64,000 nucleotides of DNA from Candidatus Wallbacteria bacterium (GTDB lineage Bacteria > Muiribacteriota > UBA9980). The position numbers and the translations under genes are program-made. How positions within the stretch are numbered: position 1 is the stretch's first letter; each line of letters opens with the position of its first letter. The stretch lies in contig JASDSY010000032.1 in assembly GCA_041441465.1 (NCBI GenBank), forward strand, positions 66,539 through 130,538, in the 5' to 3' direction. Positions 3,959-48,673 of this stretch are shown one piece after another. The notes under the pieces are model-generated. The model did not search any database, was not told the DNA's origin, and was given only the letters and a program-made list of their open reading frames with translations.

Positions 3959-3991
3959 AATAAGGCGCCATAGAAACCTATAAAAATAAAA

Positions 3992-4074: not shown

Positions 4075-4118
4075 AATCAAGTGACATCATTATACCATGA
4101 TATTTTTTTTGTGTCAAG

Positions 4119-4991: not shown

Positions 4992-5660
4992 ATGATAAAA
5001 ACCGAACGCCAGCCGCTTTCAAAACGCCAGCAGGAAATAATGGATTTTATAATTTCCGAGCTTAAAAACAGCGGCCAATCGCCGAGCATTCAGGAAATCG
5101 CCGCGTTTATAGGGGCAAAATCCACATCGACAGTGCATTATCAGCTTTCAGAGCTTGAGAAAAAGGGTTATATCGTTAAAAATCAGGGCACTTCGCGTTC
5201 CATCAAACCCGTTGACTGGCAGTATCAGAATCCTTACAATGATTCCGGCGACGCGCTTGTCGAAGTTCCTGTGATAGGTGAAATTGCTGCGGGTAAGCCG
5301 ATATTCGCTTATGAAGATTATCAGGAAACAGTTAAAATCGCGCGCAGCCTCATTACTAACGGAGAAGCTTTCATTTTGCGCGTAAAAGGCCAGAGCATGG
5401 TCGAAGATTTGATCGATGACGGCGATATGGTCGTTGTACGCAAGCAAAATTTCGCCCAGAACGGCGATATAATAGTTGCGCTTGTCGAAAACGAGGCGGC
5501 CACGCTCAAGCGTTTTTATAAGGAACATAACCGAATACGCCTGCAGCCAGCCAACAGGAACATGGAACCTATCTACGTTCCCGATGTGACTATACTCGGC
5601 CGTGTTATTTCAGTCATAAGGCCTATGGAGCGCAAGGCGCGCATGATGGAATTCAATTGA
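4992..5660 (+). CDS. lexA: LexA SOS repressor (S24 peptidase)
   Basis: 222 aa. N-terminal winged HTH (QQEIMDFI...SPSIQEIA) and C-terminal S24 autopeptidase domain with 'VKGQSMVE' (Ser nucleophile), 'GDMVVV' and 'LKR' (Lys). RBS aagtgagg upstream. Confidence 0.85.
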   Translation: MIKTERQPLSKRQQEIMDFIISELKNSGQSPSIQEIAAFIGAKSTSTVHYQLSELEKKGYIVKNQGTSRSIKPVDWQYQNPYNDSGDALVEVPVIGEIAAGKPIFAYEDYQETVKIARSLITNGEAFILRVKGQSMVEDLIDDGDMVVVRKQNFAQNGDIIVALVENEAATLKRFYKEHNRIRLQPANRNMEPIYVPDVTILGRVISVIRPMERKARMMEFN

Positions 5661-16748: not shown

Positions 16749-18692
16749 CTACATTTTAGGAATTGTTACCGTAACTCCTTTTCTGGCGTCATTATAGGAT
16801 TTATTGAATGTCGGGTCTTTTCCGAAATGGTCGTCGTATGGAAATCCATAAACTAACTTATCTATGGACAGGTCGTGGAGTATTTTAGAGTATAAATTGT
16901 ATTTGCCAGCATTTTGAACCGTAGTTTTATAAAAATTATCGGAATTACTCCAGTCGGAATCGCAGAAAACTCCGCGGTTAATTGCTGCCGTGATGCAGGC
17001 GTGAAGGTTTTTCTGAGCTTCCGTTCCTGAATTTTGAAGAGGCGCACCGTCGCAGTCCCAGATTACTTTGCTGCTTGGCTTTGACGTTATGTCGTAAGAG
17101 TCATTTACATTACTTTTACTGCCTCTGGCCACCGTGACTACGAAATGGCCTTTCAAGCTTGTTTCTTCGGTAATGACTCTGCCTTCATAATTCCAGCCGC
17201 TGTAAGAAAATTTGAGCTTATTATTTGAGTAATATTCCCAGCCGTTATCTATAGCCTTAGAAAAATAATTACTGAGCGAGTCAATTTGCTTTGGCGCCAT
17301 TACTCTCATGAATTTTTGGCTGCCGTCTTTTATGACGCAATTTTTCCAATCGGCGTCCGTTATTTTTTCGAAAGCGTCCTGGATATCTTTGTTATTGACT
17401 ATATTGAAGCCTTTTTCCTTGTTGTCTGAATTGAATTTCAGCTTGAACCCTATGCTCAAATAGTCGACAAGCGTAGTATTTAATGTTACAAGCGAGCCGT
17501 TGCAGGTAAGTTCGATCTTGTCGAATATCACATTTTTATAATTACCCATGTGGTCAGGCTGGATGAGTTTTTTTGTATCGCCGTCGGCGATTCCGAATAC
17601 GCCTTTGGTTTTGAAAAACATCCATAATCTTCCGCCGTACATATTTTTAAACGGGTGTATGTATTGGAATGTATTTTCCTTAGTCGAGTCAAGGTCGCTT
17701 AATGAGAAGCAAAATTTTTCGCCGGTCGGATTAGCCGCGGCTGAAACCATATCTTTGGTCCCTTTCTGGTCAAGGTAATAATAATTTCCGCTCTGGTCCT
17801 GCCCTATTACTGCAAGGTATATTTCTTCGGTCTTATATCCCGAATTATTGACAAGTGTTACGGGAAATCCGTCGACAACGGGCGTACCTTTTAAAATGAC
17901 GTGCGTTATTTCGCCTGCGGAAGCTACTACGTTGCCGGCCGATTCAAAATTATATCCTGCCTTTTCGGCTGTGATACTGTGGGCTTGCCCTAAAGCTGCG
18001 CCTTTAAAAAATGTCATGCCGTTATCCGATGTTTTCGCGGCTGTCCAGTCTATAACGCCTGTTTCCGGATTTGAATTGCCCCTTGAATCATACGCCGCCG
18101 CGGTGCTGCCGCTTTTTTTCAGTTCCACGGCAATCGATTCGTCCTCGCCGCCGTGCGAAAGGAATGGATACGCGTCCGAGTAAACGGTGATGTAAGCTTT
18201 GGCAGGATCGTAGTCGGAGCCGGTGAGGTTTTTCCATTCGGCTTGTGTAAATTGAGCAATGCTATGCTGCGTATCGGAAGTAATCTGAAAACTTGTCGAT
18301 ATTGGAATAACTCCCGTACCTGAAGTGATGAGCCTGTATTTGCCGGCGTATATGCCGGTGAAGCTGTAATTGCCGTTTTGATCAGTCGTAGTTCGTGAGG
18401 AAAAAAATGAAGGTGATTTTAATGCCGGAGCTTTTGATGAAATTTCAGCCGTCATGTCCGGGATAAGGTCGCATATTATATTTGCAAGTGGGGCTTTGGT
18501 GCCGGGACTTATTATCGTTCCGTTTATTGTGTATGTCGGAATAATGGTCGCCGAGTTATCACCGTTTAAAAGGCTGCCGCAGCCTGAAATTACGAATAAA
18601 AATCCCGGCAGAATACTAAAAATTGCCATTATTGCAAGCGTTAGTTTTAATGATGGATAACTGGCTAAAAGGTTTTTAATTTCACTTTTCAT
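16749..18692 (-). CDS. Secreted protein: N-terminal carboxypeptidase-regulatory-like beta-sandwich domain(s) plus C-terminal putative beta-1,3-glucanase (GH64/thaumatin-like) domain
   Basis: 647 aa with signal/TM anchor. 'GNYSFTGIYAGKYRLITSG' is a typical CarboxypepD_reg motif. The C-terminal ~400 aa is rich in aromatic residues and Cys pairs (DCDGAPLQN...HACITAAINRG, YGFPYDDHFG). The family call is from memory only. Confidence 0.3.
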   Translation of the reverse strand: MKSEIKNLLASYPSLKLTLAIMAIFSILPGFLFVISGCGSLLNGDNSATIIPTYTINGTIISPGTKAPLANIICDLIPDMTAEISSKAPALKSPSFFSSRTTTDQNGNYSFTGIYAGKYRLITSGTGVIPISTSFQITSDTQHSIAQFTQAEWKNLTGSDYDPAKAYITVYSDAYPFLSHGGEDESIAVELKKSGSTAAAYDSRGNSNPETGVIDWTAAKTSDNGMTFFKGAALGQAHSITAEKAGYNFESAGNVVASAGEITHVILKGTPVVDGFPVTLVNNSGYKTEEIYLAVIGQDQSGNYYYLDQKGTKDMVSAAANPTGEKFCFSLSDLDSTKENTFQYIHPFKNMYGGRLWMFFKTKGVFGIADGDTKKLIQPDHMGNYKNVIFDKIELTCNGSLVTLNTTLVDYLSIGFKLKFNSDNKEKGFNIVNNKDIQDAFEKITDADWKNCVIKDGSQKFMRVMAPKQIDSLSNYFSKAIDNGWEYYSNNKLKFSYSGWNYEGRVITEETSLKGHFVVTVARGSKSNVNDSYDITSKPSSKVIWDCDGAPLQNSGTEAQKNLHACITAAINRGVFCDSDWSNSDNFYKTTVQNAGKYNLYSKILHDLSIDKLVYGFPYDDHFGKDPTFNKSYNDARKGVTVTIPKM

Positions 18693-18792: not shown

Positions 18793-20691
18793 TTATTTTT
18801 CAATGAAGTAAAAATCATCCATCAGCGATTGATTTTCCCAGGGCAGCTGTTCTTTTGTCCTTGAATACACTTCTTTGCGCGTCTGCTGAAAAACCTTCAA
18901 AATATCGATACCCGGCTTTAAAATATTATTGACGAGCGCTTCCGTATAGGGGCTGTTCTGGCCGTCGCCGTCGCTTGCTGTCTGGTTAGGTGAAGTCGAG
19001 TAAGCGATTAAGGTGCCCTGCGCCGGATGATCTACGCTTGCGAGCCCGTGCGATAGACTGCGTTTAAAGCCTTTGCCGAACGGATTGTTGCGGCAGGCGT
19101 CAAGTATGATTATGGTTATTCCGGGACGGCCGGTACCGATTTCCTCGATTACCCAGTTGGCGTTTACGCATTCGTCCTCTATTTCATGCTCGTTTTTTAA
19201 GTCGAATTCGAGCGGCACGAGATAATTTTCGCCGTTATACTGCACTCCGTGGCCTGAATAGAAAAAAAGCGCGGCGCTGTCTTTATCAAGTTTCGAAACA
19301 TAGCTGCGTACGAGTTCCTTTATTTTTTTCTTGTTGAGGTTTTCGCCGCTAGTGACGTCGAATCCGCATTTTTTTAATGTTTTTTCCATAAGGCGCGCGT
19401 CATTTACCGTATTTATGAGTTTATTTTCGGCGTATTCAGAATTGCCGATGATTAGGGCATAACGCCTGGCGGAATTTTTAAGCTTATTGTCAGCTTTTGT
19501 TTGCTTTATTACACCGGCATTTTCACCGGCCGGCTCGGAAGATAAGGGGGCCCCGGCGGTATTGAACTTTTGTTCAGGTTTAATTTCTGCGGTTTTATTG
19601 TCCGGCGTTTGTGATGTTGAATCTGATTTAGGTTGATTTTTTCCGAGTTTTTCATTTAAAGTATTTAAATTATGCCTGGCCGAAGAATTTTTAGGATCTA
19701 ATTCCAGCGCTTTGCCGTAATCTTTAAGGGCTCCCGCGTTGTCATTATTGAATTCCAGCGCCACGCCTCTGGCGTTATAGGTATTTGAATAATTAGGATT
19801 TATTTCAATAGCTTTGCTGTAATCCTTGATAGCTGCGTCATTTGCTCCCTTATCCATATAAGCATTCCCGCGCCTGTAATAAGCCTCGTAATAGTCGGGC
19901 TTTAATGTAATTGCGCTGCCGAAGTCTTTTAAGGCATTTTCATAATCGGCTGCGGAATTATTTTTATTTTTTTTCATGTTATAGGCAATTCCGCGGTTAT
20001 AATATGCCTCGGCGTATTTCGGATTTAACTTGATCGCTTCCGTGAAATCGTTTATGGCGTCATCATATTTTTCTTTTTGATAATATGAATAACCGCGATT
20101 ATTATAGACTTCTGAATATGTCGAATTCATTTCCGGCGAATCGATTTTCAGTTTAATAGCCTCGCTGTAGTCATTGATTGCATTTTCATAGTCTTTTTTG
20201 GCTTGATAGGAATTGCCGCGGTCATAATAAATTTGCAAAGCGGCTGGATTTAATTCAATAGCTTTATCATAATATTGTACAGCTTTATCATAATTTACAT
20301 CGCTGTATATTTTCCCAAGCTCACAATATGCTTTGAAATATTTAGGATCAATTTCGATAGCTTTGTTAAAATTTTGTATGGCCATATCCAGATACATTGC
20401 GGCTTTTTTTTCGTCTAAATTGACTTTTGCGTCAAAACACTGCCGCCGGCGTGTGATTCCGCGGTTATAATATAACTCCGCTGATTCGGAGTTTAATTCG
20501 ATAGCTGTGTTATTGTCATTCATAGCCTTATCGTAGTCTTCTAATTCGTAATATGCCATGCCGCGCAGTTTATAATTGTCACTATCTTTAGGGTGAAGCT
20601 CAATGCATTTTTCAAGCTGCTTAACCGTCTCTAAATAGCTTGCTTTAGCTTTATCATATTCTTTTATTTCATTATAAGCCTTGCCAAGCAT
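18793..20691 (-). CDS. TPR-repeat protein fused to caspase-like (peptidase C14, orthocaspase) domain
   Basis: About 13 TPR units (AYYNRG/AIELNP repeats). The C-terminal domain has the caspase His-Cys dyad: 'YALIIGNSEY', 'FFYSGHG' and 'IIILDACRNN'. The reading frame continues open upstream to an in-frame TAA at 20815-20817. Confidence 0.75.
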   Translation of the reverse strand: MLGKAYNEIKEYDKAKASYLETVKQLEKCIELHPKDSDNYKLRGMAYYELEDYDKAMNDNNTAIELNSESAELYYNRGITRRRQCFDAKVNLDEKKAAMYLDMAIQNFNKAIEIDPKYFKAYCELGKIYSDVNYDKAVQYYDKAIELNPAALQIYYDRGNSYQAKKDYENAINDYSEAIKLKIDSPEMNSTYSEVYNNRGYSYYQKEKYDDAINDFTEAIKLNPKYAEAYYNRGIAYNMKKNKNNSAADYENALKDFGSAITLKPDYYEAYYRRGNAYMDKGANDAAIKDYSKAIEINPNYSNTYNARGVALEFNNDNAGALKDYGKALELDPKNSSARHNLNTLNEKLGKNQPKSDSTSQTPDNKTAEIKPEQKFNTAGAPLSSEPAGENAGVIKQTKADNKLKNSARRYALIIGNSEYAENKLINTVNDARLMEKTLKKCGFDVTSGENLNKKKIKELVRSYVSKLDKDSAALFFYSGHGVQYNGENYLVPLEFDLKNEHEIEDECVNANWVIEEIGTGRPGITIIILDACRNNPFGKGFKRSLSHGLASVDHPAQGTLIAYSTSPNQTASDGDGQNSPYTEALVNNILKPGIDILKVFQQTRKEVYSRTKEQLPWENQSLMDDFYFIEK

Positions 20692-20814
20692 ATAATAAGC
20701 TTCGTTAATACGGTCTTCTGAATTAATAATATCGTTATAGTATTTTATAGCTTTATCATATTCGCGTTTTGAGTAATATGCATTTCCTAATTTTAATAAT
20801 GCCGGCGAATTTTT

Positions 20815-21318
20815 TTAAAATAATTTCATCATTGTTTCATAATCTTTGATCGCATTATCACAGTCGTTTAAAATTAAATATAAATCGCCGCGATGCAGGT
20901 AAGCTAATTCGCAGTTCATTTTAATTGCTTTATTGTAGTTATCCATGGCCTGGTTATATTCATGTTTTTCGCGTAACGCGTCGCCTTTTCGCAAATATGG
21001 AACGTAATAATCGGGTTTTAAGCTTATTAACGCGTCGCAGTCTTTTATAGCTTTATCATATTCGTGTTTTTGCATATATGCGTCGGCGCGTACCTCGTAA
21101 TATTTCCAGTCAGGCTTTATTTCTATCGCTTTGGTTAAATATTTTATAGTTTCGTCATAATCGCCGGACCAATAACATGTATGGCCTTTATCAAAATAAG
21201 ATTCTGCTTGATTCGCGGCATTTGCGGTAGAATGAAAAATAAAGGAAAGTTGAAAAACTAAAATTGACATTAAAAGGCAAATATGAATGTGAAGACTTAT
21301 TTTTTTTACCATTTGCAA
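20815..21318 (-). CDS. TPR-repeat protein with signal peptide; in frame with the downstream TPR-caspase ORF
   Basis: 167 aa with signal peptide (LLMSILVFQLSFIFHSTANA) and four TPR units. A single TAA separates it from the 41 TPR-like codons that lead into ORF 18793-20691. Confidence 0.6.
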   Translation of the reverse strand: MQMVKKISLHIHICLLMSILVFQLSFIFHSTANAANQAESYFDKGHTCYWSGDYDETIKYLTKAIEIKPDWKYYEVRADAYMQKHEYDKAIKDCDALISLKPDYYVPYLRKGDALREKHEYNQAMDNYNKAIKMNCELAYLHRGDLYLILNDCDNAIKDYETMMKLF

Positions 21319-21617
21319 TTATCCCCCGCCATAATATTTTAAAAGAACTAATTGATTATTACCCAAAATATAATTATGATTGAATTTATCAGTATTAAAA
21401 AAGAATAACTTAAATGATAATTATTGTCAATGGATTTTTGATTAAATTGATTTGTTACGGCAAATATATTTTTGCAGTAATTAAAAAAATTATTAAAAAT
21501 ATATATTTACTGTTGCATTACATACAGATATAAGTTAAAATAACTCCAAATTTAAATGCTTGCTTTTTTAATCTAGAATATATATGGTTCGTATCATTAA
21601 GTCGGGAGGAAGTTCTA

Positions 21618-24290
21618 ATGAAAACATGGTTTTGTTTTGGGAAAATCCGTGAAGACGAAAATATAACGCCTGAAATGATTGTTAAAGTAATCGAAGACGG
21701 TCGGAAAATCGCTAGTGAATTTAAAAATGTGCCTCTGATAAAAATACTCAGGATATTAGAAAAAACATCAGACATATTAAATGACCCGAATCATCCTATC
21801 AGGATAGAAACCCTCGAAAGAATGCCTGAAATAATAGGCTTCACCAGGCCGATGGTTGAAACAGGCTTAAATACGCTGTGCGCCACAATGCGTGTCCCGG
21901 CGCTTCTGGCAAGACTCGACACCGATCTCGAGGATTCCAATTTTCTGGACGAATTTACATATCACAAAGTTTTTGACGGCTACATAAAAGCGGAACCCCG
22001 CGGCTTGATAGCTCACGTATCGGCCGGAAACGTTTTTATAGGGGCTGTCGATACACTTCTTCAGGGCATAATGACAAAAAACGTCAACATACTTAAAATG
22101 TCATCGATAGATACAGTATTCCCTATTTTATTCGCCAAAGCATTAAAAGAAGCCGATCCCGAAGGAATCGTCTCAAATACATTCTGCCTCGTTCCTTTTA
22201 AATCGGGCGACGAAGGCATAGAAAAAATAATTAAAGCCGAATGCAACGTTATAATCGTTTACGGCGGCAAGGAAGCCATAGAAGCTTACCGCAAAGGTCT
22301 CGGCGTGCATACCAAAGTCGTGGAATACGGCCCTAAATATTCCTGCGCCGTAATTGACGGCGGAATAATGAAACAAAAAGGCATAAATACTGTCGCAGCA
22401 AGTATGGCTCATGATTTCACGATGTGGGAACAATCGGCATGCTCTTCGCCGCATACGGTTTTTGTAAAAGGTGAAAAAGAGGCTAATGAATTTGCAAAGG
22501 CGCTTGCATGTGAACTTGAAAACTATTCAAAAATTTATCCTCATGGTAAAATTCCAGTAAATGAAAAAGTAGAAATAACCAAAAGCCGCGAACTCGCAAG
22601 AGTTCATCAAGCGCTTGGCGAGGCCGAACTTATTGTTCCGGCTGACGGATCACAGGAATGGACTGTGATATACGAAAAAAATTCAGAATTCAGGGTAAGC
22701 TGCCATCACAGAACTGCATATGTAAAACCGATTGCTGATTTTGATTCAGCAATCAAAACGCTCACGCCTTATGGTGAATATATTCAGAGTATAGCAGTTC
22801 TGGCTTCGCCGGCCGATACTTTTTATATATCGGAAAAATTATGCGCTATAGGCGCAGACAGAATCACAGAACCGGGAAATATGTCAAGGCGTAAAAATGG
22901 TACGCCGCACGACGGCACAAGAGGTACGGCGGAATTTGTGCGCTGGGTCTCGATCGGCCAGAAAAAGCCTCTTGAAGATCAATTTGATTACATGGATACC
23001 GCCGAAAGAGATAAACTTACGCTTGAACGCTTAAATTATCTGCTGGCATATTGCCGCGAAAAATCAGAATTTTACCGTGGCCGGCTTCCGGTAGAACCAC
23101 TCAAATCAATAAAAGAGCTTTCTAAAATTCCGATACTTACCCAGAAAGACTTCAGAGACCACCTTCCGCCTTCAGGCACCGGAATACTCACCGACAAACT
23201 TGGAAAAAGTTATTCATTCGGAAGCGGCGGCACTGTCGGCAAGCCGAAATTTGTATTCAGGACTATTGACGAAACGCGGCGCAACGCAAGAGCGCTGGCC
23301 AAAGGATTAGTAAATTCGGGATTATGCGAAGGCGATATTGTCGGAAATCTTTTCTTCGCCGGAAATATGTGGGCTTCTTTTGTAAGCGTAAATATGGCGC
23401 TTGAAGAAACAGGGTGCCATATACTTCCGATAGCGGGAAACGCCTGCGATATGGAAGCGATAATTTCATACCTGAAAGCATTCTCGGCAAACGTCATAAT
23501 ATCGATACCGTCAGTCATAATATCGCTTGCGCAATACGTCGAAAAAAATAAAATAACCGGAATTAAAATAGAAAAAGTTTTTTACGGCGGCGAGCATCTT
23601 TTTCCGGACGCTCAAAAATATGTAGCAAATGTACTGGGAGCAAAGATTATAGCATCGGCGGGATATACGACAAACGACACCGGAATGGCAGGATATCAAT
23701 GCCAGTGCTGCCGTGGCGGAATACATCATATAACAGAAAACATACATATAGTTGAAATAGTTGACCCTGAGACCAATATGCCGGTACCGGACGGCCGGGA
23801 AGGCAAAATTATACTTACAAACATAGACAGGTATTTAATGCCCATAATACGATACGAAATAGGCGATCTTGGAAGAATAATAACTGAGAAATGCGCCTGC
23901 GGAAGAACGCTTAAACTTATGGAACTTCTCGGAAGGGCCGACGAAGTGCTGATAATAGGCGGCGCAAATATCTCGCAGGATTCAATTGCTAAAGCCATTT
24001 CCAAAGTCGATGGGCTCTCATTCCATTTTAAAATGACGGCAAAATTGTCAGAAATGCACGACCTGCTCGTAGTCGAAGTCGAGGCGCTTGAAAAAATTTC
24101 AGAAGAAAAAGGCAGAGAGCTCGAAGGCAAGCTTTACGCAAGCCTTTTGTCTGAAAAACCTGAATTCGAATCATTTTTAAAAACTCAGAGCATCGCCAAA
24201 CCTATCGTCAAAGTTTTAAACCCGGGTGAATTACCGCGCAATCCTCGCACCGGAAAAGTAAAACATATGTCAGACGAAAGGAAAAACTAA
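21618..24290 (+). CDS. Fusion protein: LuxC-type acyl-CoA reductase domain plus adenylate-forming (PaaK/LuxE-like) domain
   Basis: 890 aa. The N-terminal ~450 aa resembles LuxC/ALDH-fold acyl-CoA reductases. The C-terminal ~430 aa carries 'SFGSGGTVGKPKFV' (P-loop-like adenylation motif; compare PaaK SSGTTGKP) and ends in 'GELPRNPRTGKVKH', also seen in the ORF at 28338-29627. Starts with RBS gggagga. Confidence 0.5.
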   Translation: MKTWFCFGKIREDENITPEMIVKVIEDGRKIASEFKNVPLIKILRILEKTSDILNDPNHPIRIETLERMPEIIGFTRPMVETGLNTLCATMRVPALLARLDTDLEDSNFLDEFTYHKVFDGYIKAEPRGLIAHVSAGNVFIGAVDTLLQGIMTKNVNILKMSSIDTVFPILFAKALKEADPEGIVSNTFCLVPFKSGDEGIEKIIKAECNVIIVYGGKEAIEAYRKGLGVHTKVVEYGPKYSCAVIDGGIMKQKGINTVAASMAHDFTMWEQSACSSPHTVFVKGEKEANEFAKALACELENYSKIYPHGKIPVNEKVEITKSRELARVHQALGEAELIVPADGSQEWTVIYEKNSEFRVSCHHRTAYVKPIADFDSAIKTLTPYGEYIQSIAVLASPADTFYISEKLCAIGADRITEPGNMSRRKNGTPHDGTRGTAEFVRWVSIGQKKPLEDQFDYMDTAERDKLTLERLNYLLAYCREKSEFYRGRLPVEPLKSIKELSKIPILTQKDFRDHLPPSGTGILTDKLGKSYSFGSGGTVGKPKFVFRTIDETRRNARALAKGLVNSGLCEGDIVGNLFFAGNMWASFVSVNMALEETGCHILPIAGNACDMEAIISYLKAFSANVIISIPSVIISLAQYVEKNKITGIKIEKVFYGGEHLFPDAQKYVANVLGAKIIASAGYTTNDTGMAGYQCQCCRGGIHHITENIHIVEIVDPETNMPVPDGREGKIILTNIDRYLMPIIRYEIGDLGRIITEKCACGRTLKLMELLGRADEVLIIGGANISQDSIAKAISKVDGLSFHFKMTAKLSEMHDLLVVEVEALEKISEEKGRELEGKLYASLLSEKPEFESFLKTQSIAKPIVKVLNPGELPRNPRTGKVKHMSDERKN

Positions 24291-24291
24291 A

Positions 24292-25773
24292 ATGGAAATA
24301 TGCAAATTTGAAAAACAAATCGCAAAAATTAACGTTAAAGCCGACATGAAATATATGCCGCCGATCCTTCAATTTGTCCATTCATTTTCGGAAAGCGAAG
24401 GGCTTTCATCCAAAAAAGCGACGCTTATGGAAGTAGCGGTCGAAGAAGCCTGCGTCAACGTCATTAAGCATGCTTACGCGCCGGACGAAGACGGCGATTT
24501 CGAAGTTGCCCTGCTGCGCCGCCCGAATCAAATCGTAATATCGATAGAAGATCACGGGCTTCCAGTCGATATGAAAGCGCTCGAAAAAAATGAAAATAAT
24601 AGCCTCGGCATAATGCTTATGAAATCGATCGCCGACGAAACTATTTTTCAAAACCTTGGCGAACGCGGAAAATGCATTAAAATAATTAAAAATATTTCTG
24701 AAAACTTCGAAGCGCTGAAAGAGCTGGCAAACAGGGAGCCGGCAGCCGTTGAAAAAGCGCCTGACAACGAACCGCTTGAAATAAGATTCATGAACCCGGA
24801 AGAGGCGGCTAAACTTTCAAGATGCATATATCACGCTTACGGCTATACCTATACGACGACATTTTATTATCCTGAAAAAATAACGGAAATGATAAATTCC
24901 GGAACGTTAAAATCAATCGTAGCATTGGATAAAAGCGGTGAAATAGTGGCGCACCTGGGATTAAAATTTCCCGCACCTGGCGCAAAAATTGCCGAATCAG
25001 CCCAGGCCGCGGTCAATCCAAAGTACAGAGGCCGCCATCTATTCGAGGACATGAAAAAATTTGCAGCCGAATACGCCAGAAAAACACAGATGTTTGGCCT
25101 GTACAGCGAATCGGTAACGCTGCATCCTTACACTCAAAAAGGAAATATTGCGTTAGGCGCCAAAGAAGTCGGCCTTATTCTCGCATATATTCCAGAAACC
25201 GCATTTTTTAAAAAAATACAGGTTGAAAATCAAAATCCTCAGCGTCAGGCAGCGCTGCTTTTTTACATGAAAACCTCTGAAAGCCCTGAACGCGAGGTTT
25301 ATTTACCGGAACGCCACACTGAGATAATAAAAAAGATATATTCCCATAACGAACTTAAAAGGACATTCGGCCGGGCGGCCAAATATGTGCCTGAAAAACC
25401 AACGGCGCTTGAAGTTGATTTCAGCCCGTATCTTAATGCCGCTATGATAATGATAAATTATATAGGAAGCGCTTTTACTTTTGAATTAATTTTAAAAAAT
25501 TACCGGCGCGAATTATGCGAAAAAAAAGCGTCCTGCATATATATTTTCATACCTCTTTCAAGCCCCGGCGCGCCATCAGCATGCGATGTAGCTGAAAAAT
25601 CAGGTTTTTCATTCGCCGGAATAATTCCTGAATATTTTTCGGGCGATTGCATAGTTTATCAATTTTTAAATAACGTAGAAGTTGACAGTGAAAGAATATG
25701 CACCGCTTCGGAATTCGCTCGCGAACTTTTAAAATATATAATTAACGAATACAATAACCGGAAAAAAAATTAA
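24292..25773 (+). CDS. Fusion: anti-sigma-factor-like HATPase (RsbW/SpoIIAB-type Ser kinase fold) plus GNAT-like acyltransferase domain
   Basis: 493 aa. The N-terminus 'EVAVEEACVNVIKHAY...FEVAL...ISIEDHGLP' matches the HATPase_c_2 signature. The central and C-terminal part has a GNAT-like pattern (VAHLGL...AAVNPKYRGRHLFEDM). The start is 2 bp after the upstream stop. Confidence 0.45.
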   Translation: MEICKFEKQIAKINVKADMKYMPPILQFVHSFSESEGLSSKKATLMEVAVEEACVNVIKHAYAPDEDGDFEVALLRRPNQIVISIEDHGLPVDMKALEKNENNSLGIMLMKSIADETIFQNLGERGKCIKIIKNISENFEALKELANREPAAVEKAPDNEPLEIRFMNPEEAAKLSRCIYHAYGYTYTTTFYYPEKITEMINSGTLKSIVALDKSGEIVAHLGLKFPAPGAKIAESAQAAVNPKYRGRHLFEDMKKFAAEYARKTQMFGLYSESVTLHPYTQKGNIALGAKEVGLILAYIPETAFFKKIQVENQNPQRQAALLFYMKTSESPEREVYLPERHTEIIKKIYSHNELKRTFGRAAKYVPEKPTALEVDFSPYLNAAMIMINYIGSAFTFELILKNYRRELCEKKASCIYIFIPLSSPGAPSACDVAEKSGFSFAGIIPEYFSGDCIVYQFLNNVEVDSERICTASEFARELLKYIINEYNNRKKN

Positions 25774-25793
25774 TAAAAGAAGGTGCGGAAAAT

Positions 25794-26912
25794 ATGCAAA
25801 ACATAGAAAACCTTTTTAAAAATAAAAATGCCTTTGATTTAAACGCGGAAAATCAGAATCTTTTTTTGGAAGCGATGAGAGAGGCTGTTGAATTTCATAG
25901 AAAAAACTCAAAAGTTTACGACGGAATATGCTCGCAGCATAATTTTTCGTTCGACCGCGACATAAAAAGCGAAAAAGACCTTTATAAAATACCTCATATA
26001 ATGGTTAACGTTTTCAAGGAAATAAAACTTCTGTCAGTTCCGCAGTCACAGATAACGCTTTCATTTACATCATCAGGCACCACCGGAATGACAAGCCAGA
26101 CCAATTTGGACGATATATCAATACAGAGACAGGGTTTCACAAGAAAATCTACAGTAGAAAGCTACGGCCTGGCTGCATACGACGAAGAAGTAAATTACGT
26201 TTGTTTTTCTTACGACCCGGAGACAAGCGGCACTAAAGGCGCGGCACACACACATACGGCATATACAAGTTTCGCTAAATCAAGAGAGACTTTTTACGCA
26301 ATATCGCGCGATGAAAAAGGCGAAGCAAAATTTAAAATAAACGAATGCATAGCCGCGCTCGACCGTTATAGCAAAAGCGGCCTGCCGCTTAGAATAACGG
26401 GGTTTCCTTCTTTCGGATACACGACTTTAAAAAAACTTGACGAAATGGGACAGCATTTTTCATTTCCGCAAAGCAGTGTTTTATTTTCTGGCGGCGGCTG
26501 GAAACTGCCGGGCGGCGATCCTATATCATTCGACGAATATTCGGAACTTGTAAAACGCGTCCTCGGAATCGCCAGAGACAGAATCAGAGACGTTTATGGA
26601 ATGATAGAGCATGGCATACCTTATATGACATGTGAATGCGGAAATTTCCATGTGCCGATATATTCGCGGGTTTATTCAGTCGATCCGGCGACGGCGGAAC
26701 TGCTGCCAGACGGCCAGACGGGGCTTTTAAAATTAATAACCCCTTACATACATAGTGTTCCGGCTATTTCGATACTCAGCACCGATTATGGCGTTATCGC
26801 CAACGACTGCAAATGCGGCAGAAAAACACCGCACATTATTTTAAAAGGCCGGGCAGGAGTAAAAAAATATGCCGGCTGCGGCATTTCCGCGGCTCAGCTT
26901 CTCGCGAGTTAA
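25794..26912 (+). CDS. LuxE-like acyl-protein synthetase / adenylate-forming enzyme
   Basis: 372 aa with 'LSFTSSGTTGMTSQ' adenylation motif. Size and N-terminus are consistent with the LuxE family. Confidence 0.45.
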   Translation: MQNIENLFKNKNAFDLNAENQNLFLEAMREAVEFHRKNSKVYDGICSQHNFSFDRDIKSEKDLYKIPHIMVNVFKEIKLLSVPQSQITLSFTSSGTTGMTSQTNLDDISIQRQGFTRKSTVESYGLAAYDEEVNYVCFSYDPETSGTKGAAHTHTAYTSFAKSRETFYAISRDEKGEAKFKINECIAALDRYSKSGLPLRITGFPSFGYTTLKKLDEMGQHFSFPQSSVLFSGGGWKLPGGDPISFDEYSELVKRVLGIARDRIRDVYGMIEHGIPYMTCECGNFHVPIYSRVYSVDPATAELLPDGQTGLLKLITPYIHSVPAISILSTDYGVIANDCKCGRKTPHIILKGRAGVKKYAGCGISAAQLLAS

Positions 26913-26971
26913 CAGCGGCTGATTTCTTTAATTGCATTCATACAGCACATTTTTTAAGGAGGCAACAATTC

Positions 26972-28345
26972 ATGGAACCCAAAAAGTTTATAAATGAAGT
27001 ATATAATAAAGTTCCGGCATATTCAGACTTTCTATCAAAACATTCCATAACTCCCGATTCGGATTGGGAATCAATTCCGCTTATAACGAAAAAAGATTAT
27101 CTGCTTTCATATCCGCTTGAAAAAATATGCTGGAACGGAACGCTTGACGGGTGTCATTTAATAGGCGCCAGTTCAGGGTTCAGCAAATCGGGAACGATTT
27201 TTTGGCCTAAAAGACCTGAGGATGAAAGGCATGCCCTGGAAGCAACTGAAAAAATGCTCATTGAACATCATAATTTAGATAAAAAAAAGACGCTGGTTTT
27301 AGTATGCCTGGCATTCGGCACATGGATAGGCGGAATGCAGATTGCCTCCGTAATGAGAACGCTGGCAACGGCGGGAAAGCATAAAATGACGGTTGCCACG
27401 CCGAGTTTAAATCTTGCAGAATCAGTTGAAATATATGATCGTTTCGGCTCTAATTTTGACCAGGTAATATGGCTTACCAATCCGTCAAACGTCAACCTTA
27501 TAACCGCTTTATTAAAAAAACGCGGCAAAAAAATAAAACCCGGCACCATATTTTTTGGAGTTATCGGCGAATACTTCACGGAAAACTTCAGGGAAAAAAT
27601 CGCCGCCGATTACGGCCATCCTCAGGACGAACCATTTTGTATATGGACAGGATACGGCTCAGCCGATACAGGCGATATAGCATCTGAAATCAAGAGCACA
27701 ATAAAACTGCGCAAGTTTTTTCATAAAAACGCAAAATTATGTAAGCAATTTTTCGGGTCAGAAAATGCGCCGATGATACTTGCCAAAAGCCCCAGCATTT
27801 TTGTCGAAATAATAAATGAAAACATAGTAGTTACCAAAGACCAGCTTGTGCCGCTTGTGCGATACGACACAAAAGACGCCGGCGGGCTTCTTTTTAAAAA
27901 AGACCTTGAAAATTCAGAAATTCCGAAGGAAATTGTAAGCGGCCTTCCGGACGAAATGGTTTTTGTATATGGCAGAGCCAGCGACGCCGTTATTTTTTAC
28001 GGCACAAACCTGCTGGTCGGAAATATTAACGATTTTCTACTATCGCTTCCTGCAAACTATTGTTACGGCGGTTTTTTTGAAGTAAGGACCAAAAAACGCG
28101 ACAATGTGACATCTTTTAATTTCACTTTATTTTTAAATACCGATCCGCAGGAAGAGCTTAAACATGAATACGAAACGCAGCTGATAGCGTTTTTAAAATC
28201 GCAAAGCCTTGAATTTAACGCTAAATATGACGCATTATGCAATTCAATAGGCGAATCGCTAATTACGGTGGAATTGAAAAAAATTAATTTTTCAACGGCG
28301 ACGTTAAAACACCGCTATGTAATCGAGGAGGATAAAAATGTTTAA
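26972..28345 (+). CDS. PaaK/F390-synthetase-like adenylate-forming enzyme
   Basis: The ATG at 26972 is preferred over the longer upstream ORF: RBS aaggagg lies 8 bp upstream, and the longer form would overlap the previous gene by ~100 bp. Motifs 'IPLITKKDY' and 'IGASSGFSKSGTIFWP' are typical of the phenylacetate-CoA-ligase-like family. Confidence 0.5.
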   Translation: MEPKKFINEVYNKVPAYSDFLSKHSITPDSDWESIPLITKKDYLLSYPLEKICWNGTLDGCHLIGASSGFSKSGTIFWPKRPEDERHALEATEKMLIEHHNLDKKKTLVLVCLAFGTWIGGMQIASVMRTLATAGKHKMTVATPSLNLAESVEIYDRFGSNFDQVIWLTNPSNVNLITALLKKRGKKIKPGTIFFGVIGEYFTENFREKIAADYGHPQDEPFCIWTGYGSADTGDIASEIKSTIKLRKFFHKNAKLCKQFFGSENAPMILAKSPSIFVEIINENIVVTKDQLVPLVRYDTKDAGGLLFKKDLENSEIPKEIVSGLPDEMVFVYGRASDAVIFYGTNLLVGNINDFLLSLPANYCYGGFFEVRTKKRDNVTSFNFTLFLNTDPQEELKHEYETQLIAFLKSQSLEFNAKYDALCNSIGESLITVELKKINFSTATLKHRYVIEEDKNV

Positions 28346-29627
28346 TTTTCTGCCTGAGAATGACAGATTGGAATCAGGCTTATCAATATATAAGGCAGCC
28401 CAAAACTCGGTGTTTTACCAAAAAAAATACAGCGGAATCAGCGAGCCAAAGGATTATGATTCCTGGCGCAAGCTTCCGCTTCTAACGCGTGATGAAATAT
28501 ACCAGAACACTTTTCCGCGCACACGCGATATGCTTACAATGCCTCTTGAAAATATGATAGTCATCTCAACCGGCGGATCTTCAGGAACCGCGCGCTATAC
28601 CGTTTACACGCACGAAGAGTGGGACCTTTTTTGCGACACACAGGCGAAGGTATTAAAAATTTTCGGAATCAAACCAGACGACAGGGTCGCCAACCTTTTT
28701 ATCGCGGGACATATGTGGCCGTCATTTCTGGGGCTTCATGAAACGATAAAAAGGGTCCATGCCGTTCATCTTCCGATATCATCAAATATACCGCCTGACG
28801 AAATATTTGATTTATGCGTGGAATTTGATGCCAGCGTCATTATTTCACTGCCGACGCTCTTTATTTTCATGGCCGACCTCGCGCAGAAAACCGGTAAAAA
28901 ACTACCTTCCTTAAGACTGTTGTGCTATGCAGGAGAACAGTTAAGCCCTGAAGGCGAAAAGCATGTAAGGCAGTCGCTTGGAGTATCCGAAATCAGGCCG
29001 GCCGCATACACAAGTTCTGACGCAGGATTAATGGGCTATCCGTGCAAACATTGTGAAAATGGAATATACCATATTCCGACTGATTTTCAATTCATCGAAA
29101 TTTTGAATCCCGACACGCTCGAACCGGTAAATAACGGGGAAAAAGGCGTTATTGTCGTAACCAACCTCGGGCGCAAATCATTTCCGATAATTCGTTATAT
29201 GATAGGCGACGACGGCATAATTTTAAACGAACCATGCGCCTGCGGCGATCCGAATCCGCGATTTAAGCTCATGGGCCGGTCCGGGGATGATTTTAAACTC
29301 GGCGGCGGCTTCATTTCAATGGCCGAGTTTGAGAAAGCGCTTTCTGAAACTGAATCGTTATTCAGCCTGAATTACAATATCGAAATTACCGACATTAAGA
29401 ACCAGGTTGAAATAGTTTTCAGTGTAGAAGCGGCTGATACCCAAAAAGCTGAAAAAGGTAAGGAAAAGCTTTATGAAGCGATCCTTGAACGTGTAAAGGA
29501 ATTCAAAGTCGGCCTTAATTTGGGGTACATAAAAAATTTCGAAATAAAGGTTTTGGAACTTGGGAAGCTGCCGCGCAATCCGCGCACCGGCAAAATAAAA
29601 AGATTATTTGACAGGCGGATTGGTTAA
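28338..29627 (+). CDS. PaaK/F390-synthetase-like adenylate-forming enzyme
   Basis: 429 aa with 'LPLLTRDEIYQN', 'ISTGGSSGTARY' and C-terminal 'GKLPRNPRTGKIKRL'. Start overlaps the upstream gene by 8 bp. Confidence 0.55.
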   Translation: MFNFLPENDRLESGLSIYKAAQNSVFYQKKYSGISEPKDYDSWRKLPLLTRDEIYQNTFPRTRDMLTMPLENMIVISTGGSSGTARYTVYTHEEWDLFCDTQAKVLKIFGIKPDDRVANLFIAGHMWPSFLGLHETIKRVHAVHLPISSNIPPDEIFDLCVEFDASVIISLPTLFIFMADLAQKTGKKLPSLRLLCYAGEQLSPEGEKHVRQSLGVSEIRPAAYTSSDAGLMGYPCKHCENGIYHIPTDFQFIEILNPDTLEPVNNGEKGVIVVTNLGRKSFPIIRYMIGDDGIILNEPCACGDPNPRFKLMGRSGDDFKLGGGFISMAEFEKALSETESLFSLNYNIEITDIKNQVEIVFSVEAADTQKAEKGKEKLYEAILERVKEFKVGLNLGYIKNFEIKVLELGKLPRNPRTGKIKRLFDRRIG

Positions 29628-30988
29628 TGGAAAACCAGAAAAATTCAGCTGCGGCGCTTGAACTTAAGACTCAAAGCGTTGGCAAGCTTCTTCTAAAATA
29701 TTCAATTCCGACCATTGTTGGAATGATGGTATTCGCGTTTTATAATATCATAGACCGTATTTTTATAGGGCGCGCCGTTGGCAGTATGGGAATTGCAGCT
29801 GTTGGCATTACTTATCCTATATTTATGATATTGATAGCGTTTGGAATGCTTGTCGGTATAGGAGCCGGTACTCTTGTTTCAATAAAGCTCGGCGCCGGAC
29901 ACCGTGACGAAGCGGAAAAAATTCTTGGCAATGCCCTGACCGTACTGATTATACTTAGCGTTATTTCAACAATCGCAGGGCTTTTTTATCTTGAAAATAT
30001 TTTATTGGCATTTGGCGCGAGTCAAAACACGCTGGGGTACGCATGCGATTTCATGCGCATAATTTTTTTAGGGATAATATTTTCATTTGTGGCTATGGGG
30101 CTCAATAATGTTATACGCGCCGAAGGAAATCCTGGATTGGCCATGGGAACGATGCTGATTGGCTCTATTATAAATATTTTATTGAATCCGCTGTTTATAT
30201 TTGTATTCAAATTAGGAGTTGCCGGTTCTGCGCTTGCGACGCTTGTTTCTAATTTAGTATCAAGCGCGTGGGTCATCTGGCACTTTACCCGCGGAAAAAG
30301 TAACATAAAATTGCGTGCGCGTAACATGGTTATTGAGTTTTCCATAATAAAACAGATATTTTTCATAGGGCTTTCGCCGTTTATAACACAGCTTGCAGGA
30401 AGCGTTGTCGGTATCGCCATGAATAAAAATATGCTGCTTTATGGCGGCGATATTGGCGTGTCGGCACTTGGAATAATTTCCGGGCTTACTATGTCGCTGA
30501 TGATGCCAATAATTGGGATCAGCCAGGGCGCCCAGCCGATAATCGGATTTAATTATGGCGCCGGTGAGTACGCGAGAGTGAAAAAAGCAATTAATCTTTC
30601 TTGTATATGGGCTACCGCGATTTCTGCGTTGGTTTTTACCGCCGCGTATGCCGCTCCTGAATTCATAATTAAAATTTTTGATTCGCGTACGCCTGAACTT
30701 ATAACAGTAGGTACGCACGGAATGAAAATTTTTATGATAGGCGTTATTTTTCTGGGATTTCAAATTGTAGGCACCAATTATTTTCAAGCTGTGGGAAAGC
30801 CCAAAACTTCGATATTTTTAACGATGCTTCGGCAGATTATTCTTCTGGTGCCTTTTGTTTATATTTTCCCGTATTTTTGGAAACTCGACGGTTTGTGGCT
30901 GGCTATGCCTGCCGCTGATATTATAACGTCGGCAGTTGTTTTTTTTGTTCTTTCGTCTGAAATGAAGCGCTTGCGTAAAGAAATTTAA
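29627..30988 (+). CDS. MATE family efflux transporter
   Basis: 453 aa, 12 TM helices. N-terminal 'LLKYSIPTIVGMMVFAFYNIIDRIFIG' is typical of MATE/NorM. Start overlaps the upstream stop (TAATG). Confidence 0.75.
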   Translation: MENQKNSAAALELKTQSVGKLLLKYSIPTIVGMMVFAFYNIIDRIFIGRAVGSMGIAAVGITYPIFMILIAFGMLVGIGAGTLVSIKLGAGHRDEAEKILGNALTVLIILSVISTIAGLFYLENILLAFGASQNTLGYACDFMRIIFLGIIFSFVAMGLNNVIRAEGNPGLAMGTMLIGSIINILLNPLFIFVFKLGVAGSALATLVSNLVSSAWVIWHFTRGKSNIKLRARNMVIEFSIIKQIFFIGLSPFITQLAGSVVGIAMNKNMLLYGGDIGVSALGIISGLTMSLMMPIIGISQGAQPIIGFNYGAGEYARVKKAINLSCIWATAISALVFTAAYAAPEFIIKIFDSRTPELITVGTHGMKIFMIGVIFLGFQIVGTNYFQAVGKPKTSIFLTMLRQIILLVPFVYIFPYFWKLDGLWLAMPAADIITSAVVFFVLSSEMKRLRKEI

Positions 30989-31131: not shown

Positions 31132-31170
31132 TAAAAAATCAGAGGCAAGTGTATTTGCCTCTGATTTTTG
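31132..31170. terminator. Bidirectional rho-independent terminator
   Basis: aaaaaa-tcagaggcaa-gtgtat-ttgcctctga-ttttt. Lies between the convergent MATE (+) and SH3b-hydrolase (-) genes. Confidence 0.75.
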
Positions 31171-41200: not shown

Positions 41201-41324
41201 TTTTACTGCCGCCGCATCCGGCGCATAAAATAATTACCATTCCCAAATATATAAGAAAAATGACCTTGTCCGCTAATTTCATAAAAGGATTTTCCCCTCG
41301 ATTTTTGAGTTGATAGTATATCAC
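38232..41324 (-). CDS. Large surface lipoprotein with ~9-10 tandem Ig-like (Big-type) repeats
   Basis: 1030 aa. Lipobox 'ILCAGCGGS'. An ~95-aa repeat recurs with the consensus '...W.LISG.G.LNG.VY..P....ETAVF.A.Y.ESG..K.A.F.LK...'. Confidence 0.6.
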   Translation of the reverse strand: MIYYQLKNRGENPFMKLADKVIFLIYLGMVIILCAGCGGSKNTSVIPAFPSSEKSVTSKLSFLSEADEEKYYAELEKSLNDKLSAQDSNTAATQPPGLSKIVLSSITDEISTLSSYNLSEKITATALSAGNEPKIITPVWQIYSGGGSISGTVYTSVKKSETVVLTAAHSENGISRLALFRLKVNGLEFISLSRTTAEIQMPAQFNLDSELTSTANYADGSTREISSRDGIIWEVSGGGTLNGTVYTPASNTETAVFTAIYTESGITKKAAFALTINGLRSISLNRATDEIQLPAGYDLGSELIAEAHYSDQSTKEITHSPMLAWTLISGSGTLNGNIYSPPGNTETAIFSASYSESGVSKTAEFILKITEQPSIFLNITTDEIQGGARYDLSKLSIISKFPDGTEQNINNTPETAWTLISGKGNLSGTIYFAPASTETAVFLVSHGGSGISGRAYFRLKVNSLTSISLSKAYDDVCVSSVYDLNSEVKVNAKYSNKKNLDVTHSPELSWKLISGCGILNGSAYAPPAKTETAVFMASYSEAGVTKTAKFKLKTIGLNSIILNKSTDEIQSCSSYDLASNLTVTGRFSDSTSGILTNDPNTSWKLISGKGKFYGTIYTASDTTETAVFLARHQIGGMTKTALFKLKVNALKSIFLSKKTDEIQLPAAYNLCSELIIKAAYSIRATQEVTNSPALKWELVSGKGKLDGPVYITPGNPEKAVIMAAYSESGITKTAKFTLKITEPSTLSVSKTADTTPSCSMYNLSKNIIVTNKLSDGAKKNVTKNQEIKWSLVSGAGIFNENIYTAPAIAETAVFLVRHIKSETANSAYFRLKVKALTSIYLSAPTGETQINTPYDLSANLKIYAKFSNGDTEEITNNPNMTWLLSSGSGNLNGKVYIPSLKAETAVLTAIYTAAGITQNVQFKLKVTLPGSKIQLTGISLNKTTDEVTIGGSYNLNNLTATAKYSDKTTEAVKLNWLIISGGGIITDNIFMAPNNPATIKLMGTLISTDNTVKSTYFSIKISDKERKTIK

Positions 41325-48557: not shown

Positions 48558-48673
48558 AAAATTATACCGATATAAAATTATTTAGTTGAATTTGTCTGAT
48601 AATTATTATAATAAGAATAACACGAAGATTATTTTTTTAGTTATTCATAAATTCATTTAATAAAAGACCCTAT

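Follow-up and report, generated by a model that had tools for sequence, protein, structure and literature searches.

The stretch of DNA analysed here, referred to as the window (64,000 nt, positions 66,539 to 130,538 of contig JASDSY010000032.1), is part of a 133-kb contig of a Candidatus Wallbacteria metagenome-assembled genome. It contains an operon of six open reading frames (ORFs) on the plus strand between positions 21618 and 30988. Gene 1 encodes a fusion of a LuxC-type reductase domain with a PaaK-like adenylate-forming (ANL) domain, gene 2 a fusion of an RsbW/SpoIIAB-like HATPase domain with a tandem GCN5-related N-acetyltransferase (GNAT), gene 3 a LuxE-type acyl-protein synthetase, genes 4 and 5 two further PaaK-like enzymes and gene 6 a MATE family exporter. 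NCBI annotates the products no further than as "acyl-CoA reductase", "ATP-binding protein" and "phenylacetate--CoA ligase" (accessions MEZ7893034 for gene 1, MEZ7893035 for gene 2 and MEZ7893037 for gene 4). A preliminary description of this DNA had proposed a translationally coupled operon, and all six ORFs were located where it had placed them. The coordinates of the single features and their occurrence in related loci are given in Table 1.

Table 1. Features of the operon and families conserved in related loci. The last column gives the number of loci with the family among the 46 loci that were clustered (see text); aa, amino acids.
Feature	Position in the window	Strand	Remarks	Clustered loci
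AT-rich leader and putative promoter region	21319..21617	+	ribosome-binding site GGGAGGAAG directly before the first ATG; ~300 nt	
LuxC-type acyl-thioester reductase domain (gene 1)	21618..22967	+	residues 1-450 of the 890-aa gene 1 fusion	
PaaK-like adenylate-forming domain fused to LuxC (gene 1)	22968..24290	+	P-loop SGGTVGKPK, four invariant Cys, A10 Lys880	
LuxC-PaaK fusion, whole (gene 1)				39/46
RsbW/SpoIIAB-like HATPase_c_2 domain (gene 2)	24292..24696	+	residues 1-135 of the 493-aa gene 2 product	
Tandem GNAT (gene 2)	24778..25770	+	GNAT-1, residues 163-300; second GNAT-like domain, residues 319-493	
HATPase-GNAT, whole (gene 2)				38/46
LuxE-type acyl-protein synthetase (gene 3)	25794..26912	+	P-loop FTSSGTTG, GGGWK lysine, C-terminal GC acylation motif	39/46
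Divergent PaaK-fold adenylating enzyme (gene 4)	26972..28345	+	457 aa; fold-based assignment	27/46
PaaK-like ligase, paralog of the fused domain (gene 5)	28338..29627	+	AMP-binding/PaaK-like	29/46
MATE family efflux transporter (gene 6)	29627..30988	+	PF01554 E 3.5e-48, 163.8 bits, two stretches	9/46
Intrinsic terminator	31134..31169	.	16-bp stem, flanking T-runs; closes the operon	
MFS_3 transporter				25/46
~650-aa SpoIIE-type phosphatase				24/46
~100-aa STAS protein				18/46
~135-aa HATPase_c_2 protein				11/46

The six genes are packed tightly, and direct reading of the sequence bore out the junctions that had been claimed before. The first gene ends with a TAA at 24290 and is followed, after a spacer of 1 nt, by the ATG of the second at 24292 (TAA-A-ATG, 24288-24294). 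Genes 2 and 3 are separated by 20 nt, genes 4 and 5 overlap by 8 nt (ATG at 28338, TAA ending at 28345, with GAGGAGG upstream), and genes 5 and 6 overlap by 1 nt in a TAATG at 29627. The start of gene 4 had to be corrected. The mechanically called ORF 26813-28345 is over-extended, and since the homologs have 451-461 aa and an AAGGAGG precedes the ATG at 26972, this ATG was taken as the start of the protein. Therefore, the luxE-like gene and gene 4 do not overlap but are spaced by 59 nt. A sigma-70 promoter scan of the leader returned many matches, which were weak and uninformative. Rfam families were found neither in nor before the operon, neither as riboswitch nor as other RNA motif, and the Rfam matches in the window are three tRNAs located elsewhere. 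Downstream of the terminator the next gene converges on the operon from the minus strand. Thus ORFs, junctions, leader and terminator confirm a six-gene, same-strand operon, as does the synteny of the gene set in 44 genome loci described below.

The reductase domain of gene 1 matches PF05893 with an E-value of 6e-87 (292.5 bits, cut-off 21, model positions 4-401 of 401). It also matches the LuxC structure 7xc6_A (E 1.6e-32), where Cys275 in the motif QSAC aligns to the active-site cysteine in QQAC. This cysteine is the acyl acceptor in Photobacterium LuxC (PMC9157457), and Cys275 is invariant in an alignment of LuxC-PaaK fusion homologs. The domain fused to it is closest to the Bacteroides enzyme BT_0428 (4r1l_A, E 1e-42). 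Gene 5 is 35% identical to residues 451-890 of gene 1, shares the C-terminal LPRNPRTGK[VI]K with it and has PaaK-type ligases as best matches in the PDB (E 2.5e-29). By these sequence matches both proteins are assigned to the two-domain PaaK-like ANL fold, with P-loop, A10 lysine and ribose-binding Asp. Four cysteines of the fused domain (C695, C698, C759 and C761, CxxC...CxC, residues 695-761 of gene 1, window 23700-23900) are invariant across distant fusion homologs and are common to gene 5 as well, which suggests a structural metal site. The LuxE-like protein matches PF04443 (E 4e-39, 134.9 bits, cut-off 24.9). In the alignment to 7xc6_E its GGGWK lysine corresponds to K238, and its C-terminal KKYAGCGIS places a cysteine at the position of Cys364, which in the lux system lies within a TRxxKGCxLS motif and carries the acyl group (PMC9157457). 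Gene 4 matches no Pfam family and was assigned by fold only. Its AlphaFold model has a mean predicted local distance difference test (pLDDT) score of 85.9, and Foldseek aligned it over the full length to BT_0428 and PaaK1/2 (E 1e-19, template-modelling (TM) score 0.64-0.67). A search for its relatives gave 242 matches, the best 120 of which are all at least 47% identical, and the equivalents of the adenylation motifs (SSGFSKSG, RYxTxD, GR, KH) are invariant in this family. Nucleotide-binding and catalytic-lysine motifs are thus retained in all four ANL-type modules. Gene 6 exceeds the subfamily cut-off of TIGR00797, with 184.2 against 147.4 bits. The gene content proposed in the preliminary description, with four adenylating modules including LuxE, a LuxC reductase domain and an exporter, is therefore supported by the domain and motif evidence, and the adenylating ORFs fall into the PaaK and LuxE families and not into unrelated ones, for gene 4 on the fold.

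The cassette resembles known systems without belonging to one of them. With the LuxC-LuxE fatty acid reductase of the lux system (7xc6) it shares the LuxC cysteine, the LuxE P-loop, GGGWK and Gly-Cys motifs and the neighbouring position of both genes on the same strand. In contrast to lux, luxA, luxB and luxD are missing, the LuxC domain is joined to a PaaK-like ligase, and the operon additionally encodes two more PaaK-fold ligases, an exporter and a kinase-GNAT protein. A lux bioluminescence system was rejected on this context, as the scanned ORFs of the window include neither a luciferase nor a LuxD family. The fold and motifs of the ligases are those of PaaK and of PaaK-like ligases of secondary metabolism (BT_0428, NatL2, AjiA1, BagE/FevW), with BT_0428 and PaaK1/2 as best solved relatives. 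Here, however, a paa catabolic operon is missing, one copy is fused to a reductase and one copy is too divergent for any Pfam model. The equivalog models tell the same. LuxC reaches 143.7 of the 750 bits required by NF052251 and LuxE 86.3 of 550 bits (NF052244), and against the PaaK models TIGR02155 and NF041878 (cut-offs 646-700) the fusion scores 147-168, gene 5 102-127 and gene 4 20-24 bits. No NCBIfam equivalog cut-off for LuxC, LuxE, PaaK or RsbW was reached by any operon protein, and judged by these scores the proteins are members of the superfamilies and not orthologs of the characterised enzymes. PADLOC anti-phage defence models gave zero matches for all six proteins.

The N-terminal domain of gene 2 matches PF13581 (E 4e-22, 78.9 bits, cut-off 27.4), its profile finds RsbW (6m36, E 4.5e-17), and a hidden Markov model (HMM) of the small partner-switching kinases discussed below matches the same domain with an E-value of 3.6e-11. 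The N-box EEAxxNVIxHA, the D87xG89 motif and the GLG are conserved. In an NCBIfam scan RsbW-like models alone matched gene 2, with 30-40 bits against equivalog cut-offs of 145-155. The C-terminal part is less obvious, as Pfam Acetyltransf_1 scores 18.1 bits, which is under the threshold of 20.7. Nevertheless, the gene 2 profile matches the GNAT structures 3fb3/3t90 (E 7e-5), and the AlphaFold2 model (pLDDT 83.6, predicted TM score 0.81) has as Foldseek top match the tandem GNAT 2wpw from the clavulanic acid pathway. Single GNATs such as RimI and SpeG are matched with a probability of 1.0 and a TMt of 0.7-0.84. The model thus predicts a GNAT fold with a CoA pyrophosphate-binding loop (Q/R-x-x-G-x-G/A) in spite of the sub-threshold Pfam score. 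GNAT-1 keeps this loop (P243, R246, G247), of which R246-G247 are nearly invariant in the family, and retains E273 and H278 as plausible catalytic residues.

When an alignment of the LuxC-PaaK fusion was run against one genome per species, 44 loci were obtained, and the cassette is found in 44 genomes of about 8 phyla. Among the carriers are Bacteroidales (Muribaculaceae, Rikenellaceae, Prevotella, Paludibacteraceae), Flavobacteriales, Chitinophagales, Ignavibacteria, Chloroherpeton, Geobacterales, Desulfobulbus, Bdellovibrionales, Ottowia, Pelotomaculum, Eubacteriales and relatives of the organism of the window. Two carriers are cultured and hence accessible to experiments, the flavobacterium Aequorivita viscosa CGMCC 1.11023 (locus L049) and Trichlorobacter ammonificans (locus L001), and both loci include the complete set of partner-switching parts. 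For the family counts in Table 1 the ORFs of 46 loci, i.e., the window, one further locus (L001) and the 44 genome loci seeded on LuxC-PaaK, were clustered all-versus-all. The genes for the fusion and for HATPase-GNAT invariably share one strand. Both are present in 37 loci, and in 36 of these they overlap or are at most 12 nt apart. Together with the synteny in 44 genome loci, by which the conservation of the neighbourhood was confirmed, this arrangement is far beyond chance. Exporter function is conserved as well, but the family is swapped, since most other lineages carry MFS_3 in place of MATE. Fifteen loci include 7 kb or more of sequence to either side; an exporter is encoded in 13 of them, and partner-switching genes likewise in 13. 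A short form of the cassette lacks genes 4 and 5, and in Flavobacteriia and Chitinophagales it consists of STAS, kinase, phosphatase, HATPase-GNAT, LuxC-ligase, LuxE and MFS_3 in this order. No additional conserved family, neither an acyl carrier protein (ACP) nor an aminotransferase, thioesterase, dehydrogenase or deacetylase, was found by the clustering of the 46 loci. A literature search found no published work on a LuxC-PaaK cassette or on an RsbW-GNAT fusion.

LuxC/LuxE homologs and GNATs are also encoded in O-antigen and flagellin glycosylation islands (PMC7874193, PMC4772473). The operon might therefore modify a surface glycan, a capsule or a flagellin glycan, comparable to CapK, to RfbN of Vibrio cholerae or to the LuxC/LuxE proteins of Aeromonas flagellin glycosylation. 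We consider this very improbable, because no glycosyltransferase, sugar-nucleotide or ACP gene is present in the flanks of the operon in the window or conserved across the 46 loci, and the conserved companions are an exporter and partner-switching genes instead. The capsule/CapK locus, whose adjacent glycosyltransferases had been named in advance as the finding that would speak against a small-molecule pathway, was rejected on context, as such genes are missing and the flanks encode TPR-caspase, GH64, SH3, NUDIX, M23 and CheA proteins.

Partner switching is known mainly as a control scheme for sigma factors. Most lineages outside the clade of the window encode such a module next to the cassette, made up of a small RsbW-like kinase, a STAS protein and a dCache-HAMP-PP2C phosphatase. 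In the clade of the window the module is not adjacent, and it could therefore not be seen in the DNA on which the preliminary description was based. The phosphatase is a transmembrane protein of the dCache/PDC-HAMP-PP2C (SpoIIE) type and is in some cases fused to HATPase_c_2. The STAS proteins retain YISS[AS]GLR, the motif that holds the phosphorylated serine of SpoIIAA/RsbV, and the small kinases retain the N, G1 and G2 boxes. A sigma factor was found neither in the 64-kb window nor adjacent to the homologous loci having STAS and PP2C genes. In several lineages dCache, HAMP, SpoIIE and HATPase_c_2 domains are encoded by a single ORF (L016 6977-8455, L021 6225-8564, L041 14124-16409), a form that puts the phosphatase and the kinase of the switch on one polypeptide. 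The module is thus similar to RsbU-RsbV-RsbW and SpoIIE-SpoIIAA-SpoIIAB in its sensor PP2C phosphatase, its single-domain STAS protein with Ser motif and its RsbW-like HATPase_c_2 domain. It differs from both in lacking a sigma factor, in carrying the RsbW-like domain in cis on one protein with a tandem GNAT, and in having a transmembrane dCache-HAMP receptor as phosphatase. The closest precedent for an enzyme as the target of partner switching comes from Anabaena, where a glycosyltransferase is under HenR/STAS control (PMC13555669).

The presence of two HATPase domains in most of these systems, one in the fusion and one in the small RsbW-like kinase, means that their roles could differ. The fusion could then be an input and not an output: the GNAT domains would sense acetyl- or acyl-CoA and tune the RsbW-like kinase acting on STAS, and the STAS protein or another partner would be the effector. 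An output role of STAS proteins towards unknown targets has been described (PMC8256260), and ATP-binding motifs are retained in most members of the HATPase-GNAT family. Such a role is nevertheless quite unlikely in our opinion. The N-box Asn is absent in several HATPase-GNAT clades (Geobacter type, P0088, P0093), from which kinase activity appears dispensable, the conserved catalytic-looking GNAT residues and the CoA loop suggest turnover instead of sensing, and the clade of the window has the fusion without a nearby STAS substrate. The dCache sensor phosphatases that are adjacent in most lineages also fit a further explanation, according to which the whole cassette is not biosynthetic but responds to organic acids from outside the cell, e.g., arylacetates and fatty acids, for their uptake or detoxification. 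Here the dCache domain would sense the acid, the ligases and LuxC would reduce it, the transporter would move substrate or product, and four ligases would stand for four substrate ranges. The Bacteroides acyl-CoA ligase BT_0428, to which the fused ligase is most closely related among solved structures, the lack of conserved tailoring enzymes and the hosts, which live mostly in gut, digester and sediment, i.e., in mostly anaerobic and acid-rich habitats, are in accordance with this. However, reduction spends ATP and NAD(P)H and gives reactive aldehydes, no conserved alcohol dehydrogenase follows it, and export is the typical function of MATE and of MFS_3, the EntS-type "secretion effector" family. 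Hence, we regard an organic-acid response as improbable.

The HATPase-GNAT protein is not restricted to the cassette. The preliminary description had called the fusion unusual, but it is not rare: a profile search of 1.84 billion cluster representatives gave 1368 representatives of 50%-identity clusters at E<=1e-30, with at least 150 full-length matches above 410 bits, and therefore a large, conserved and uncharacterised family. The contexts of its members were collected by exact look-up and from 80 metagenome loci seeded solely on the HATPase-GNAT protein. Besides LuxC cassettes, the gene is found directly upstream of a 551-aa fatty-acyl-CoA ligase gene, divergent from acsA, or sandwiched with STAS, PP2C and kinase genes (STAS / HATPase-GNAT / PP2C / kinase) without LuxC, and there are also loci without a recognisable partner. 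The neighbouring AcsA is bona fide, with 920 bits against the cut-off of 725 of TIGR02188. Close homologs with 34-44% identity occur without any LuxC or LuxE genes. For a neighbour count, only loci with 3 kb or more of sequence to either side were used, and these were collapsed at 70% identity into 23 lineages. An ANL enzyme is encoded within 3 kb of the HATPase-GNAT gene in eight of the 23, partner-switching genes in six and either kind in 11. By chance, an ANL gene would be expected within this distance in a few percent of cases according to our own estimate, which is not a computed value. The A10 lysine is retained in all ANL enzymes neighbouring a HATPase-GNAT. In a neighbour-joining tree, which carries no support values, the members from LuxC contexts are split into at least five groups, with members from the other contexts in between. 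Since the contexts interleave, the idea that solo HATPase-GNAT genes form a separate paralogous subfamily was rejected, and solo and cassette proteins are treated as one family.

Further features recur around HATPase-GNAT genes. Tandem duplicates of the gene are present in some metagenome loci (L087 913-3859, L088 6518-9464, L107 6944-9794). In loci of the Cloacimonetes type a Cu-oxidase_4 gene (polyphenol-oxidase/YfiH-like) overlaps or directly follows it (L006 10455-11114, L054 9486-10145), and the same HATPase-GNAT genes adjoin the hrcA-grpE-dnaK-dnaJ heat-shock operon as a recurring context.

These contexts bear on the role of the GNAT, which the preliminary description had considered as a possible N-acylation step of the pathway. 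In that case a PaaK-like ligase would make an acyl-CoA and the GNAT would acylate an amine with it, e.g., an amino acid whose carboxylate LuxE and LuxC reduce. The product would be an N-acyl amino aldehyde or an N-acyl amino acid acting as signal or inhibitor, and the HATPase domain would add control. The CoA loop and the plausible catalytic residues of GNAT-1, the clavulanic acid pathway enzyme as top fold match and the fact that PaaK-like ligases normally yield CoA thioesters usable by a GNAT are all in line with such a biosynthetic N-acyltransferase, and so are the presence of the gene in 38 of 39 clusters and its tight coupling to the LuxC fusion. Yet homologs with all invariant residues are found in many loci without LuxC, LuxE and PaaK, which hold AcsA, a fatty-acyl-CoA ligase or partner-switching genes alone, and in the tree these contexts interleave with the cassettes. 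Moreover, no amine-supplying gene, such as one for an aminotransferase or amino-acid ligase, is conserved in the cluster across the 46 loci. Taken together, an N-acylation step appears doubtful, and we judge the biosynthetic acyltransferase as rather unlikely. The LuxC-free contexts of the homologs point to a regulatory protein instead, and as the neighbourhoods share ANL ligases and partner-switching genes, we read the HATPase-GNAT as an acetyltransferase that is controlled by partner switching and gates ANL enzymes.

We therefore tentatively favour, among several possibilities, that the operon is a self-contained and post-translationally gated cassette for the reduction of carboxylic acids and export of the product. 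Each adenylating module would activate a carboxylic acid with ATP; judged by the closest relatives, arylacetate-like or fatty acids are our best guess. As a thioester, the acyl group would be handed to Cys275 of LuxC, including direct loading by the PaaK-type enzymes, so that up to four loading enzymes could feed one LuxC cysteine in a kind of carboxylate-reductase hub. NAD(P)H would then reduce the LuxC-bound acyl group to the aldehyde, and the MATE pump, or MFS_3 in most other lineages, would export this aldehyde or a spontaneous derivative. Hence, the exported product is probably an aldehyde or aldehyde derivative. The sequence of acyl activation, reduction and export, as it had been suggested for the operon before, is supported by the four ANL modules, the LuxC and LuxE cysteines and the conserved exporter function. 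In this gated cassette the HATPase-tandem-GNAT protein would be the switch and not a pathway enzyme. Its GNAT half may acetylate the catalytic lysine of the adenylating enzymes with acetyl-CoA and thereby turn them off, as AcuA and Pat do with acetyl-CoA synthetase. The RsbW-like half is predicted to bind and perhaps phosphorylate a STAS protein, with the GNAT replacing the sigma factor as output, and the membrane-bound dCache-HAMP-PP2C phosphatase would set the phosphorylation state of STAS upon sensing an extracellular ligand. In the Wallbacteria clade STAS protein and phosphatase would act from elsewhere in the genome, if at all.

GNATs such as AcuA, Pat and KatA acetylate the catalytic lysine of Acs and other AMP-forming ligases, which thereby lose their activity, and these acetyltransferases often have a regulatory domain fused to them (PMC6640162). 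Similar to AcuA-AcsA and Pat-Acs, the GNAT gene described here is located beside ANL enzymes, in some lineages divergent from acsA like acuA in Bacillus, the A10 lysine is kept in the candidate targets, and the GNAT carries a regulatory domain, like Pat, MtPatA and other lysine acetyltransferases (PMC6640162). In contrast, a sequence relationship to these proteins was not detected, the GNAT is a tandem one, and acetylation is here a prediction from context. The regulatory domain is an RsbW-like HATPase, which we found described for no acetyltransferase. The cassette thus resembles a combination of LuxCE, an AcuA-like switch and an Rsb-like module, and by their defining features it is outside lux, paa, acu and rsb.

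Several points weigh against the gated cassette. The STAS, PP2C and small RsbW genes are absent from the 64-kb window, as searched by tblastn and with HMMs from the homologous loci and with the exception of the N-terminal domain of the fusion itself, and therefore the link to partner switching comes from other lineages; the nearest relatives of the window (L002, L010-L012) are likewise without nearby partner-switching genes. The GNAT has no specific sequence relationship to AcuA or Pat, and neither was found among the 41 PDB profile matches of gene 2 (E up to 1) or its best 50 Foldseek matches. Its best structural match 2wpw is a GNAT of a small-molecule pathway, which fits a biosynthetic role equally well, and the near-universal tight junction with the LuxC fusion could mean that the protein is a catalytic subunit. 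A conserved deacetylase, which was looked for in the 46 loci, is missing from the cluster. The logic of the A10 lysine does not apply to LuxE, because LuxE is without an A10 subdomain. Twelve of the 23 lineages have neither an ANL nor a partner-switching neighbour beside the HATPase-GNAT gene, and the tree that interleaves the contexts lacks support values. Finally, the domain identities, catalytic motifs, synteny and context statistics are observations, whereas it is from homology and gene context that we infer the acetylation and its target, the acyl donor, the binding of STAS, the substrates, the product and the loading of LuxC by PaaK-type enzymes.

Divergent from the operon, a 632-aa TPR-repeat protein ending in a caspase domain (Peptidase_C14) and a 167-aa TPR protein are encoded at 18793-21318, and a GH64 beta-1,3-glucanase with CarboxypepD_reg domains is encoded at 16749-18692. 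The CheA-like kinase at 35539-38019 is permuted, as it has dimerisation, HATPase and CheW domains followed by C-terminal Hpt and P2, whereas the usual order is Hpt-P2-dimerisation-HATPase-CheW. The 1030-aa ORF at 38232-41324 (minus strand) has no Pfam match at E<=1e-5. The region 49331-63836 is likely a cluster for a ribosomally synthesised and post-translationally modified peptide. It encodes a class II lanthipeptide synthetase of 1095 aa with DUF4135 and LANC_like domains (49331-52618, minus strand), a 301-aa GNAT (52662-53567), four B12-binding radical SAM proteins (53946-56675, 56687-58486, 58571-60331, 60786-62555) and a fifth radical SAM protein (62748-63836), and small ORFs at 48171-49178 could be its precursors. 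In addition, three tRNA genes (Arg-ACG, Ser-GCT, Ser-TGA; 3762-4075, minus strand) adjoin a gene of the MafB19-like/cytidine deaminase family (4119-4598) and a LexA gene (4992-5660).

A wider idea, to which we give less credence and which is rather more doubtful than not, concerns the HATPase-tandem-GNAT family as a whole. It could be a widespread new output of partner switching, namely a STAS-controlled protein acetyltransferase that toggles ANL enzymes post-translationally (acetyl-CoA synthetase, fatty-acyl-CoA ligases, LuxE/PaaK/LuxC) and, in the cassettes, couples the sensing of an extracellular ligand by dCache to the immediate and transcription-independent release of an exported, aldehyde-derived molecule. 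Such a sense-and-secrete circuit would possibly be autoregulatory or quorum-like, and it would be common to gut Bacteroidales, Geobacterales, Ignavibacteria, Wallbacteria and others. If this is true, partner switching would gain a non-transcriptional, enzyme-fused output, and a function would be assigned to a family of more than 1000 50%-identity clusters that are annotated no further than "ATP-binding protein". The AcuA/Pat principle would be extended to a new regulatory input, and extracellular sensing would be tied to acyl-CoA and acyl-adenylate metabolism. The cassette is easily overlooked, because it contains no nonribosomal peptide synthetase, polyketide synthase, ACP or tailoring gene that usually marks biosynthetic clusters. 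Should our reading be true, a compact biosynthetic cassette would be flagged in about 8 phyla, including Bacteroidales of the animal gut.

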